From: Yuukianura sp. NJ FZ-2021
Taxonomy: Eukaryota
DNA: 64,000 nucleotides
Reading direction: 5' to 3'
NCBI GenBank assembly: GCA_046563655.1
Contig: CM102283.1
Coordinates: 434,001-498,000 of the forward strand
The translations under genes were made by a program, and so were the position numbers. The stretch's first letter is position 1, and each line of letters starts with the position of its first letter. The notes under the pieces were generated by a model that made no database searches, was not told the DNA's origin, and worked only from the letters and a program-made list of their open reading frames with translations. Positions 51,268 through 56,722 of this stretch are shown piece by piece.

Positions 51268-51921
51268 ATACTGAAATTTGATTGGTCAAAATCCCAGCCC
51301 GTGTTTCAATTTTAGCCAATTGGCGTCCAGCTCGCTTTTGATTGGTCGACTTGTTGCTGCCCCAGAGGGCTTTGCCAGTAAAATGCTGAAATTTGCTTGG
51401 TAAAATCCCAACCTGTATACCAATTTCAGCCAATTGGCGTCCATCTCGCTTCTGATTGGTCGACGAGTCGTTGCATCAGTGGGCGTGGCCAGTACATTGC
51501 TGCAATTTGAGTGGTCAAAATTCCAAACCCTATACCAATTTTCAGCCAATGGGCGTGCAGCTCGCTTCTGATTGGTCGACATGTCGTTCAAAAATGGCCC
51601 AGTCCAACCAATGGGAGTGGCTGGTCGCAAAATGTTTTAAAATCCTCTGCCAATTTTTTCTAGAAAGTGCAATAAGATAAACTCGTGGAATCATAAAAAG
51701 TGGTCTCGAGACATCATTTGTTGCTGAACCCTGGCGTATATACAGCATGCTGTGTGCGCCAGAGCATTACAAACTGGCCAGTTTGGAAAACATTTAATCT
51801 TCACTGCTTTACCAAACCATACTCATTTGTAGTTTGACGAGCAACCGGAAAGGACGTGCTGGCAAAGCAGGAAGCAAAAGTAACCTCAAGGGTGTTTTTG
51901 ACTGAGAGCGACACTGGTACA

Positions 51922-52479
51922 ATGGATTCTGCACAAGTTACGCCAAAGAATAGCAAGAAAACGAAAAACGAGGATTTAAATCAGGTAATGGGGTTCCTCT
52001 CAAATGAAGAATTGCAAGTTCTGGAATCTGCTAATCGAAGAAACGCGAGAGTTGAGGATGACGATTCTGACGGACGGTCCAAGGTACCTCGCAAGTTGCA
52101 AAAAACGTCGCTGCAGCATGGAAGAATGTCGCCATTTGAACAGCATATCCCACACCAAATGTCGCCATGTGACACAGAAACACGCAAAACATCGAAAAAA
52201 TCACGCCGCAAAGGGTCAAAGTCTACGAAATTGACGCGAAAACGAAAAAAAGGCGGAAGAAAAGAGGAGAGAATCGAATCCCCACGCTATAGTGGAGCAG
52301 AATCTGATACAGATTCAGCAAAAACGAACAAAAAACATCAAAAAGTCATCCAACCTGACGTTGTTGGAAAGAAATCAACTAAAAAAACTTCAAAAAGGAA
52401 ACCAAAAAGGAGGCAAACTGGACTTAAGTATGCTACTTCGTACAAGAATGGTGCAAATGGTAGCCTGCTTCTGCGGTGA
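51922..52479 (+). CDS. Lys/Arg/Ser-rich basic protein (185 aa) of unknown function
   Basis: ORF downstream of a TATATA at 51737. Strongly basic (RKTSKKSRRKGSKSTKLTRKRKKGGRK); no recognisable domain. Confidence 0.5.
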   Translation: MDSAQVTPKNSKKTKNEDLNQVMGFLSNEELQVLESANRRNARVEDDDSDGRSKVPRKLQKTSLQHGRMSPFEQHIPHQMSPCDTETRKTSKKSRRKGSKSTKLTRKRKKGGRKEERIESPRYSGAESDTDSAKTNKKHQKVIQPDVVGKKSTKKTSKRKPKRRQTGLKYATSYKNGANGSLLLR

Positions 52480-52904
52480 AACCACCTGCCTTTACACATT
52501 TGGCATTAAGTATAGTAGAAACTAAAGTCTCCCTACCTTTTGACTACTATAAATTAGCATTATTAGCCAGTTTGGCGGCCAGTCGGCATGCAAAAGCCGA
52601 GGTGACAACACCTCTCCGCCAAAAAATTGTGCAAAATTGTACGTTTAGTGAGCAGACTTGTCCTCAAACGGTCGCCAATCGCTACCCAAAAGCCAAATTT
52701 AATACACTTTTCTGCCAAAAAGTTGGACATTTGCATCCAAACGGTCGCCAGTCGGCATCGGCGCGTCTTATCGACCACACCTCTCGACATACTTTAGACA
52801 ACAATTGGCTCTACATTGTTGAGGTTCAGCGATTTTTAGCAAATTAAAATACCCCAACAATATCTCACAGACTTGACCTAAAACGAGGCCAACTATCCAC
52901 GGAA

Positions 52905-54983
52905 ATGGAGCTTACCGTTCCAATGCACTCGAAGCTGGTGGACACAAATGCCAAATTGGACTTGTTTTCCATGCCAGATACAGAAGTTTCTTGCTTGCTG
53001 GACAATTATCTCAAAGTAGAGTCGTACTATGCAACAAAAGGAAATGAAAATCCGATTCATTTTTCGTTTTGGCACATGGCCTACTTGGATTTGTCGGATT
53101 CGTTTTTCAGATTTGTAGTCTCCATTCGAAAAAAAGATGGTTCGGCACTCGGTGACACAGACAAGGTTGCTCCGGAAAATCTGTTCTTTCACACATTTAT
53201 CGAAGATTTTAAAGTCGTTGTCAACAACACGCAAGTCGTGGCCCAGGGGCCAAGGGCATACCCGTACGAGGCTTGGATATTTACTCAACTTCAGCAAGGG
53301 ATTGGTTCGAAAAGCAGTACATTGTCCAGGGAAATTTATTTTCCCGGCAATGTTATGGACAACTTTGACGACACAAACCCAAGCTTCAAAGCTCGACTTG
53401 AGCTGGCAAAGAAAAGTAATCAATTTGAGATGATTGGACGCCCGATGCTTGGAATTTTCACTTCGCCGAGACTTTTCCCGCCAGGAACACGGTTCAATTT
53501 TCAAATTCAGCGGACCAACCCAGAGTTTTGCTTGTGCGGACCATCCTCTACATCTGAATACAAGGTTGAAGTGGAGTGTGCAGACTTTTACGTTCGCCAA
53601 TATCGTCTAAATGAAAAGTTGACTACTCAACTTCGCACCGCATTTGCAAACAAGGTAGGGCGATGCTCAAGGGTTGAGCATAGGTCTTCTGGAGGGAGTT
53701 GACAATTGATACGACATTTAGACCGGCCTACCGCAAAACTGTGGACAAAATGAGAAACCGTTTTCATGGAATTGACGTATTAAAACGTCACTGAAAATTT
53801 TCAGTGCGAATGTGAGACACTACTTTGAGCATGAGTTGCACCAAATTTTGTATTGTCGATGTTGTCATGGCAATGCTCAATGTAGTTCTCAAACCTGCAC
53901 AAACCTTCAATTGTGTGCATCAGGGTGCATCATGCACCAAATTGTACGTTGTGGGGTAGGAGTCGAATATCGTTTCTTTAAAATCCAAATCATAAAAATT
54001 GACTTGTGAATGCAAATTTGACCCCTTTCATTCACTATTCACATATTACGAATTTAAGCCGGAACTTCTACACTCTAACGAGGCTTAAATTAACAACGTG
54101 AATAAACATACTGTCAGCAAATGACAGGGTCAAAACTTCGTTGTTTAAATAAATTTTGAGTATAATCGAAACCAAAAAATGTCGGGAAACGATAACACTG
54201 CGTGTGCGTAAAGTGGCCGCCCATTTCTACGCTGTTAATTCTACAATTTTAGTGCAATGTAGACCTAATGAAAACACTTGAGCCAAACATAACCCCCCGA
54301 ACAAATTGGGGCTTATGTTTCAGTGCAAAGTATCCTAAAAAATGTGACAGACGGACGGACAAAGTCGTATCAATAGTCTTCTTCAGCACGTCGTAGACGT
54401 GCGTCTCCAGAAGACTAAAAAGAAAATGGCATTGTACTCTTTTGACAACGCCGTCAAGTTCTCTACGTATGTACCCATTGGGGTCACCGAATTTGAAATT
54501 CCAAAAATTATGCCTACCGCAATTCGGCCAAAGCTTCTCTGCATTGCAATTACGACAAGCGAAGTCGTCAATGGCAAACTCGAAAAGTCACCGTTTAATT
54601 TCAAACCACATGGAATCAAAAACATGAAACTCAAATTCGAAGGAAAGGGAGTTGTTTTTGAGGAAATGAACTTTGAAAACAAAAATTACATGCTGGCCTA
54701 CAACAACATGTGCAAGTTAATTTCACATGGAACCGACGGAAACGACATTACATATGAGCAATTTGTAAAGGGCAATGCGATTTTTGTGTTTGACACTCAA
54801 AACTTGAGATCAGACACGTTCAACCCTGGAAAAATTGGACAATTTGCATTGGGCCTTAGTTTTGACGAAAAGACAAAGGAAGAGCTAATGGTTATCACCA
54901 TTGCCGTGGAAGACGTTACACTGGAAATTGGAGAAGGCGGACTAACGCGTTTCGCATCTACGAAAAGCATTTTTTTCAAGTAA
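52905..54983 (+). CDS. Polinton/adintovirus-type double jelly-roll major capsid protein (hexon-like), split by an insertion
   Basis: The N half has LDLFSMPDTE, YLDLSDS, VAPENLFFHTF, YPYEAWI and RLFPPG. The C half has RPKLLCIAI...NGKLEKSPFNFK, YMLAYNNM and GNDITYEQFVKGNAIFVFD. These parallel, from memory, Polinton MCP motifs (LDLF..P.T, YLDL, P.NLFLHSLF, YPYRAY, NPFNF). 52905-53654 plus 54411-54983 gives 440 aa. Confidence 0.82.
53649..54417 (-). mobile_element. Helentron-associated non-autonomous element (HINE/DINE-1-like)
   Basis: Subterminal inverted repeats gtcttctggag (53684-53694) / ctccagaagac (54405-54415). Extra IR tagtcttct (54374-54382), GTCY microsatellite on the minus strand (54346-54360), terminal stem-loop atgctcaa-ggg-ttgagcat (53663-53681). 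Inserted in an A/T run without TSD. Confidence 0.75.
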
Positions 54984-56722
54984 TTTTTCTCAACTTAAAA
55001 TTTCAAAGCGTTCCTTCATATGTATTCCACTCACAATACTTTATACAATTCATAATCTTGTGTAATGTATGGTATGAGCTTGAAAATAAAAACCAGCATC
55101 ATTAAAGCTAAATAAAAACAATAGTCTAACTTTGGATTTATTTAAAACTAGTTTTTAAGCGGATCGGTGACGCGGCATGTATTTCTGAATAAAATTATGT
55201 TGGCTTTTTGTGGACCGGCTGTGGTTTGCATCTCATTTTTTTATGATTCCACGAGTTTATTTTATTGCACTTTCTAGAAAAAATTGGCAGAGGATTTTAA
55301 AACATTTTGCGACCAGCCACTCCCATTGGTTGGACTGGGCCATTTTTGAACGACATGTCGACCAATCAGAAGCGAGCTGCACGCCCATTGGCTGAAAATT
55401 GGTATAGGGTTTGGAATTTTGACCAATCAAATTGCAGCAATGTACTGGCCACGCCCACTGATGCAACGACTCGTCGACCAATCAGAAGCGAGATGGACGC
55501 CAATTGGCTGAAATTGGTATACAGGTTGGGATTTTACCAAGCAAATTTCAGCATTTTACTGGCAAAGCCCTCTGGGGCAGCAACAAGTCGACCAATCAAA
55601 AGCGAGCTGGACGCCAATTGGCTAAAATTGAAACACGGGCTGGGATTTTGACCAATCAAATTTCAGTATTGTACTAGCCACGCCCTTCGGGGCAACAACA
55701 CGTCGACCAATCAGAAGTCAGGTTGACGCACTTTGTCGTCAGACTCGAGGGATTTGAACGTCCTTGGGCAGTTGACTTGCGATAAAGCTATTTCCCTGCC
55801 CATTCGAAACGACTAGTATGTGTAGTTTTGAAGGACTAGCGGACCAATAGTAACCGAGGTTGACGTCTAGCGGCAGAAATTAGTCGGTGAGATTTGTGAT
55901 TTTGAAAAATACCAAAATGAGCACTGGGTGTCGTATAAACTTGCGTACCAACACTCCACGGATCATAAGCAACTAGATGGAAACGCTTACTAGTCAAATT
56001 GCGGCATTGAAATGGTTACGCAATGCTTTTGCGGTGAGTGAAACGTTATTCACTCGGCGAAAAGCTAGACTGCAGAACTCCCACCAATGCCCTTGTGTTT
56101 GCAAATTAGGTTTGTATTGCAAATAAGTTTGTTTTTTGTACACGAGTCAATCAATTCACAAGGTCAAAAGTTTTCATTGCTTGAACTTGTCGTAAGTTTT
56201 TTTCGTGCATTCTAATTAGCGATCGCGACACGGAAGTAATTGGCAATTAAAAAACCGCAAACGTGCAAGACGAACAGTAGGTTACGTCTTGTGTCATCTC
56301 AAAATATTTTCGAAATATATTTAGAAAGGAACCTGATGTTTACAAAGAAATATTTTTGAGAATTTATTATTTAAAAGGGTTTCCGAGAAAAATAGTTTCC
56401 GTGAAAGTAGTATTTTCAAACACAAAAAAAAAATTAAAAACCAAATTAAATGCCAAGTTTAAAATGAGCCCAAGCTATAAAAAAAAACTAAAAAGTTGCA
56501 TAAAAGTGCAAAGAAGAGAGGATTTTTCAGGTGGGACTCAAACCACAAAACCGCAAAATATTTTTTAAATTATTTTTAAAAACTAATTAAACTCTTAAAC
56601 CTACAGTGAGCATGGACAAAAACGAAATATAAAAAGTTGCACAAAAGTGCAAAAAGAAAAGCATTTTGTGCAAAAGAAAAGGGGGTAGGGGGGGGGGGCT
56701 TTGCCCACCCAAACCATTGACT

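Follow-up and report, generated by a model that had tools for sequence, protein, structure and literature searches.

What kind of element places a predicted viral capsid gene between two long, near-identical inverted arms and encodes no enzyme with which to copy or move itself? The question is raised by a block at nucleotides 51268 to 56722 of a 64,000-nucleotide stretch of the Yuukianura sp. NJ FZ-2021 genome (GenBank assembly GCA_046563655.1, contig CM102283.1, positions 434,001 to 498,000, forward strand), the whole of which we refer to as the window or the 64-kb window. With moderate confidence, we read this block, which begins at or before 51268 and ends at 56722, as an integrated non-autonomous miniature Maverick-like element. 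In the mechanism we propose, the arms, built of ~114-bp CCAAT-rich tandem units, would be cis-acting ends used in trans by the polymerase and integrase of an autonomous relative. Between the arms, two genes of like orientation would supply a small lysine/arginine-rich protein and a capsid protein, with all enzymes borrowed. The basic protein would act as a DNA-condensing partner of the capsid protein, and the capsid would either coat the element's own DNA or join the particles of the helper, in the fashion of a satellite virus. The reading draws on two full instances, the block itself and a metagenome contig designated L001, and on one partial instance, designated L003. The features of the block and its immediate surroundings are as follows.

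51168-51267: scaffold gap of 100 N, the only run of N in the window, abutting the outer end of the left arm
51268-51699, plus strand: left inverted arm, 432 nt, its outer part missing at the scaffold gap
51271-51588: tandem units of the left arm, 2.8 units of 114 bp; the arm has a further ~110 nt of non-tandem inner sequence
51737-51742, plus strand: TATATA, a putative TATA signal read from the sequence, 38 nt inside the left arm boundary and upstream of ORF1
51922-52479, plus strand: ORF1, 185 aa, rich in lysine, arginine and serine (48 K/R)
52905-53648, plus strand: predicted capsid gene, part 1, 248 codons, first jelly-roll half, 51% identical to residues 1-248 of the L001 protein
53649-54416, plus strand: insertion of 768 bp splitting the capsid gene, position uncertain by 2 nt, with ends that belong to a very high-copy repeat
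54417-54983, plus strand: predicted capsid gene, part 2, 188 codons (54417-54980) plus stop, second jelly-roll half, 50% identical to residues 250-423 of the L001 protein
55085-55090, plus strand: AATAAA, a putative expression signal 102 nt past the capsid stop codon; L001 has a comparable AATAAA
55238-55669, minus strand: right inverted arm, 432 nt, complementary to the left arm at 430 of 432 positions
55349-55760, minus strand: tandem array of the right arm, units at 55349-55717 plus a degenerate unit to ~55760, extending past the match with the left arm
55670-56722: outer right region, non-coding, reaching the end of the block; its last bases, 56720-56722, are ACT
56723-57391, minus strand: 5′ exons of the host eIF3e gene, the exon ending "...YDYAKLYYE" being cut at 56723/56722

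A first-pass annotation of this DNA, made from the letters alone, had described near-identical arms of at least 432 bp, a basic ORF, a TATA at 51737 and an AATAAA at 55085, and all of these are present. Compared base by base, the arms differ at two positions (51511/55426 and 51676/55261), an identity of 99.54% by BLAST; the "100% complementary" returned by the repeat finder was a rounding of this 2/432 difference. As the left arm starts at the gap, it is truncated by the contig end, so the 432-bp bound is itself set by the assembly and is a minimum length. The inner edges of the arms lie 3538 nt apart and the inner boundary is sharp, with just 7 of the next 40 positions pairing. Terminal inverted repeats (TIRs) of Mavericks/Polintons run from tens of bp to ~1400 bp, a range into which arms of at least 432 bp with 430/432 identity fall. 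Both arms consist of ~114-bp tandem units with many CCAAT-type motifs. The motif GACCAATCA occurs 10 times in the 64-kb window, always within one of the two arm regions, where 0.69 copies would be expected (none of 100 shuffles reached 10), and every site in the window for GCCAATKGGC is within the arm regions as well. Nothing else in the window resembles the block in sequence, not even the region of a MULE transposase gene discussed below, and tRNA and Rfam scans of the block returned no match.

For comparison, contigs from four DNA runs (X1 to X4), which come from two studies, were aligned to 51268-57500. About half of the block's 31-letter words are present in these data, which are ~2% different from the window. 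One X1 contig of 2228 nt covers 51601-53648, so that it includes 99 nt of the left arm and runs over the arm's inner edge, and contigs from X2 to X4 begin at ~51669-51670, as expected of a 31-letter-word graph at a repeat edge. Given this X1 contig and the two positions at which the arms differ, a simple fold-back is unlikely. The gap is preceded on its left by an rDNA unit, broken off within its 28S, and since the left arm adjoins the 100-N gap, its neighborhood is a scaffolding decision.

The same contigs bear on the capsid gene. The ~440-aa capsid-like gene of the first-pass annotation is there, as 248 + 188 codons, but its parts are not joined by an intron; what separates them is an insertion. 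An intron, with GT at 53655 and AG at 54386 or 54410, was ruled out, since DNA contigs from all four runs join 53648 to 54417 directly, without the 768-nt stretch, and the ends of that stretch are not GT..AG. In X1, the end bins of the stretch reach depths of 147,778 and 130,922, compared with 615 for the gene contig, and many contigs with differing flanks enter or leave at 53648/53649 and at ~54420. The DNA joint in all four runs, the huge depth at the ends and the varied flanks together identify the stretch as an inserted high-copy repeat. No second copy of it is present in the 64-kb window, and it belongs to no tRNA or Rfam family. Unless RNA processing takes the repeat out, the copy of the element in the window is probably not functional. 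Together the two capsid parts cover full-length relatives from one end to the other with nothing lost and, as read from the alignment, they retain all 8 nearly invariant residues of the family. A repeat inserted in a viral gene can thus look like an intron in an assembly.

The repeat has features of its own. A donor-like AAG/GTAGGG lies at 53654/53655, 6 nt inside the left end, and acceptor-like sites lie at 54386/54387 and 54410/54411, 30 and 6 nt before the right end; either donor/acceptor pair would preserve the reading frame. Splice-like ends and a huge copy number recall, by analogy, the intron-generating transposons known as introners.

The fold was computed for P0001, the closest full-length homolog (~50% identical overall; 54% and 46% identical to the two capsid parts), as a proxy for the split protein of the window. 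The AlphaFold2 model of P0001, based on an 84-sequence alignment, has a pLDDT of 91.3 and a pTM of 0.89. With Foldseek, the model matched the capsids of an iridovirus, Sputnik, mavirus and PBCV-1 as well as vaccinia D13, at E values from 6e-17 to 2e-11 (SGIV capsid 6e-17, Sputnik 1e-15, mavirus 1e-15). With VIA-align, it gave Z scores of 28.1 for PBCV-1 (359 residues, rmsd 3.0), 27.9 for faustovirus, 25.7 for ASFV p72, 24.2 for Sputnik, 22.1 for mavirus, 17-19 for adenovirus hexon and 16 for PRD1 P3. Matches in BFVD were virophage, adomavirus LO7 and giant-virus capsids. The fold of this ~50% identical relative confirms, by proxy and at the level of a model, that the gene encodes a double jelly-roll capsid protein as found in Bamfordvirae. 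The best E value in BFVD, 5e-23 (21% identity, with a low TM of 0.38), was that of R9XLG5, an unnamed protein of Cotesia sesamiae Mombasa bracovirus, and a member of the capsid family may therefore be carried by a wasp bracovirus segment.

By sequence searching, the family comprises 1364 representative clusters at E ≤1e-3, 290 at 1e-10 and 8 at 1e-30, and its members are mostly 420-450 aa long. Judged by these searches, the family stands apart from those covered by Pfam and counts at least 1364 clusters at 50% identity. Named homologs of the capsid protein are called "hypothetical protein" only; the family may be the one labeled "F54H12.2-like". PHROGs and PDB sequence searches with the window proteins gave nothing usable, and the family profile found no solved capsid among PDB sequences, the best viral row being adenovirus hexon at E 0.9.

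The capsid gene also differs from its surroundings in how it changes. Between the window and the X1 copy, 3 of 744 nt differ in capsid part 1 (2 synonymous changes, 1 not), as against ~32 of 1205 nt in the stretch 51700-52904, so that the coding part is ~6 times better conserved than the region upstream of it. From this pattern of substitutions, we infer that the capsid gene is under constraint.

Relatives with the same organization were found in metagenome data. Of 349 matches to a search pattern among metagenome contigs, 3 were confirmed as relatives, while scans of IMG/VR with three sub-alignments gave 65, 16 and 169 pattern matches and scans of prokaryote genome contigs gave 84, none of them confirmed. 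L001, a contig of 3944 bp, has the same layout as the block in the window. Its arms (3-454 and 3365-3795; 83% identical over 456 columns) are made of 225-244-bp tandem units and reach both contig ends, and between them lie a basic ORF of 132 aa (36 K/R) and an uninterrupted capsid gene of 436 aa, accompanied by a TATA-like site and an AATAAA. The right arm begins 226 nt after the capsid stop codon in L001 and 254 nt after it in the window. The arms of the window and of L001 have no sequence in common. L003 (1218 bp) contains tandem repeats followed by a basic ORF (92 aa) and then a capsid gene. The basic ORFs of L001 and L003 occupy a position equivalent to that of ORF1, and the two end alike (KVLKGS.F).

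The right end of the block lies in a host gene. Pfam eIF3_N matches the minus strand at 57391-57272 (E 5e-8) and 57019-56852 (E 2e-7), and the translation of the eIF3e exon loses sense exactly at 56723/56722; the end coordinate 56722 proposed in the first-pass annotation is therefore meaningful, being the junction with this exon. Flank contigs from all four runs align only from 56723 rightwards. An X2 contig (and an X1 contig by the same arithmetic) continues leftwards for a further 838 nt that are unlike anything in 51268-56722. The cut exon, and the divergence of related contigs at the same point, imply either an insertion that is absent from related genomes or a chimeric join; judged by these alignments, the block appears to have entered a coding exon of eIF3e recently. 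Earlier, recent activity had been suggested from the near-identical arms and the open reading frames. The interrupted exon and the diverging contigs speak for it, but the open frames are only half true, the capsid gene being split. The block ends in ...TTGACT, with a single ACT, which has a 1 in 64 chance of occurring at a fixed base. Symmetric arms would make 55238-56722 the right terminal repeat (1485 bp) and the element ~6.5 kb long, the 768-bp insertion included. A long run of G lies ~20 nt from the 56722/56723 junction.

ORF and Pfam scans of the block found no polymerase, RVE integrase, packaging ATPase, maturation protease or penton gene, in agreement with the first-pass annotation, which had recognized no replication or integration genes between the arms. 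Three further ORFs of the block have no Pfam match, and ORF1 has none above the cut-off. Among ORFs of at least 150 aa in the 64-kb window there is likewise no polymerase, integrase, packaging ATPase, protease or penton; these ORFs hold fascin, RPC4, CYTH, a P-type ATPase, an EGF-like mucin and a MULE/FLYWCH transposase. The block and L001 each have a capsid gene of their own and no replication gene, as a satellite would.

Several observations weigh against a Maverick-like element. The first concerns the tie to known Polinton capsids. Adintovirus and MELD-virus proteins match the modeled structure no better than virophage or giant-virus capsids do, so a "Polinton capsid" family is a candidate assignment only. 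The capsid parts of the window have no Pfam match at E up to 1, P0001 has none at E up to 0.01, and the L001 protein, P0153, P0152 and P0003 do not match PF21738 ("Double jelly roll-like domain", gathering cut-off 27 bits) at E up to 10. PF21738 is reached weakly, and below threshold, by 5 of 84 family members (best E 2e-5), and by 2 of 10 other members, again below the cut-off. Of the Polinton double jelly-roll capsid that had been predicted from the letters, the double jelly-roll is thus upheld by the modeled homolog, but membership of the Polinton family by sequence, with no Pfam match, is not. PF21738 is present in 15-24% of members of the Atlas neighbors of P0001, and in a passage of PMC13696692 HHpred links the adomavirus hexon LO7 to PF21738.

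The remaining points concern the gene set and the ends. A double jelly-roll capsid cannot do without a penton and a packaging ATPase, neither of which the block encodes, and there is no helper element in the 64-kb window. ORF1 has no BLASTP similarity to the basic ORF of L001; compared with the X1 copy, 10 of its 12 changed codons are non-synonymous, like non-coding DNA, and the X3 copy has one extra base after 52251. These comparisons suggest that ORF1 is either fast-evolving or else not a conserved gene. The ACT at the right end is single, not repeated, and the left end lies beyond the 100-N gap, which leaves the arm length, the target duplication and the left junction unassembled. Among the matches listed for the four DNA runs, no contig spans 55237/55238 or 56722/56723. 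Finally, positions 3-209 of L003, just upstream of its tandem repeats, hold the end of another gene, P0164 (147 aa), so relatives of the block may be larger than two genes. P0164 has no Pfam or PDB match, and tblastn with it found nothing credible in the 64-kb window; a marginal match at 44663-44812, which falls in rDNA spacer repeats, was rejected. P0164 may encode another structural component, either of larger relatives or of a sister element.

Among the alternatives, the one that survives best, though we consider it unlikely, is that the block is a dead internal-deletion remnant of a full-size Polinton/Maverick, whose ends and part of the capsid module were kept by accident and have no function. 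Such a history would account for a capsid gene split by the 768-bp repeat and for an ORF1 that drifts like non-coding DNA, and depths suggest a low copy number (615 vs 227 in X1, 20-56 vs 40 in X2), depth being a poor measure of it. The architecture of L001 stands in the way: it has the same two-gene layout within inverted arms even though its capsid is only 51% and 50% identical in the two parts. A one-off remnant is therefore unlikely, two independent deletions of the same kind are unlikely too, and the "unique decayed deletion" that the first-pass annotation had named as a possible refutation is weakened accordingly. The ~6-fold better conservation of the capsid coding part than of its upstream region is also at odds with a dead remnant, as are the copies in all four runs, which read through without the insertion.

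Distinctly unlikely, in our estimate, is a capsid gene domesticated by the host, for example as a decoy against Maverick-like viruses, driven by inverted CCAAT-box enhancer arrays and not mobile. A constrained capsid gene amid drifting surroundings would suit a host gene, block and host flank have equal G+C (0.41 and 0.405), CCAAT-type motifs are densely packed in the arms, and the TATA and AATAAA resemble host gene signals. The block, however, lies within the coding sequence of an essential host gene, one exon of which it breaks, and none of the contigs listed for the four runs has the junction, which fits an insertion and not an old locus. Moreover, both contig ends of L001 fall in its arms, as they would for repeated or terminal sequence, and the right arm in the window faces away from any gene that it could drive.

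We regard as improbable a Foldback-like cut-and-paste DNA transposon that has taken up a capsid gene as cargo and is moved by a transposase encoded elsewhere. Foldback elements are recognized by long inverted arms composed of tandem subrepeats, which are found both here and in L001, and the window contains a candidate source of transposase at 4949-6382. The block, however, matches nothing else in the window, the MULE region included. The capsid gene and a basic ORF have been retained across 50% protein divergence, which argues that they are part of the element's own cycle, and the ...ACT at the right end would fit the ends of Mavericks. The MULE gene itself (4949-6382, minus strand) is an intact-looking ORF of 477 aa with a FLYWCH zinc finger and a MULE transposase domain (Pfam E 2e-13 and 7e-17).

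An assembly artefact, in which the left arm is a fold-back or a misplaced copy at the contig start and/or the eIF3e junction is chimeric, is very improbable: the left arm does start exactly at the only gap in the window, mis-assembly is known to leave near-identical arms where contigs end, only this assembly shows the eIF3e junction while contigs from all four runs leave the window there, and the long G run is close to it, but the arms differ at 2 positions, an independent X1 contig crosses the left inner boundary with its 99 nt in the arm, L001 shows the same layout with diverged arms (83%) in another data set, and the break falls at an ACT end, as a Maverick terminus would.

Elsewhere in the window are features separate from the block. 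The rDNA unit occupies 43854-51167 and comprises spacer tandem repeats of 63/127 bp and 31 bp, an 18S gene (47383-49193), a 5.8S gene and a partial 28S gene (model positions 24-954); its spacer repeats are unrelated to the arms of the element. A P-type ATPase gene with several long exons lies at 34447-39516 on the minus strand, and most of the Atlas clusters nearest to it are cation/magnesium ATPases of bacteria or fungi. This gene may be of foreign origin in a host that is otherwise animal-like (fascin, FLYWCH, EGF-like domains). At 22693-25584 is a 963-aa low-complexity open frame of repeated "PAKKTESAKGSSP..." units, with a G+C of 0.43-0.49, richer than the rest of the window.

Returning to the miniature Maverick-like element, a wider proposal can be built on it by analogy, and we advance it with considerable doubt. 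The block and its relatives would represent a lineage of the smallest known replicons with a double jelly-roll capsid, of 4-6.5 kb, linear in type and with repeat-built arms. They would live either as capsid-bearing satellites that depend on autonomous Maverick-like viruses for polymerase, integrase, penton and packaging ATPase, or as one segment of a divided genome. In the divided-genome version, the remaining genes could lie between arms of the same kind, and the 147-aa gene of L003 flanks such an array. We speculate that, if the proposal is true, the element would offer a compact and tractable object with which to ask which of the ends must be present in cis, whether Maverick capsids do form, and whether a capsid gene by itself could act as a parasite or as a host defense.

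How, then, does the block compare with known systems? The known forms of Mavericks/Polintons are uniform, at ~15-20 kb; they are held to be viruses, and we know of no particles that have ever been seen. What the block has in common with these elements (Polintoviricetes) is a double jelly-roll capsid gene, terminal repeats that are long and inverted, and a site in the genome of an animal-type host; its right end reads ...ACT, with a single copy of the motif. Unlike them, it is ~5.5 kb as assembled and contains a capsid gene and a basic ORF only, and its capsid is not tied to Polinton capsids by sequence; nor do the window protein, P0001 and the L001 protein match PF21738. According to passages of PMC8097293, Mavericks are 12.7-24.6 kb long with eight core genes, and those of vertebrates have ends of the form 5′-(AGT)2//(ACT)2-3′, TIRs of 46-1447 bp and target duplications of 6 bp. 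An excerpt of PMC4028283 gives 15-20 kb, with pPolB, integrase, ATPase and protease. In the portions of the literature retrieved there is no description of capsid-only or non-autonomous TIR-bounded mini-Polintons, though supplements, such as those of PMC8097293 and of the preprint 10.64898/2026.06.19.733378, may list short or defective elements; the phrase "non-autonomous polintons" occurs once in these portions, as an old view of Tlr1 (PMC5499653).

In the build of its ends, the block resembles the Foldback transposons (Drosophila FB and Galileo), which likewise have long inverted ends of tandem subrepeats around a short middle; the units are 114 bp here and 225-244 bp in L001. Foldback elements, in contrast, carry no capsid gene. 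With the virophages Sputnik and mavirus the block shares the capsid fold (Z 24.2 and 22.1 for the P0001 model), but virophages are much larger and have ATPase, protease, penton and replication genes. A satellite virus has its own coat and borrows its replication, and the block, known here from its sequence alone, resembles one in having a coat protein of its own without a replication gene. If there is a conserved lineage that keeps only ends, a capsid and a basic protein, then Mavericks would have dependants of their own, as giant viruses have virophages.

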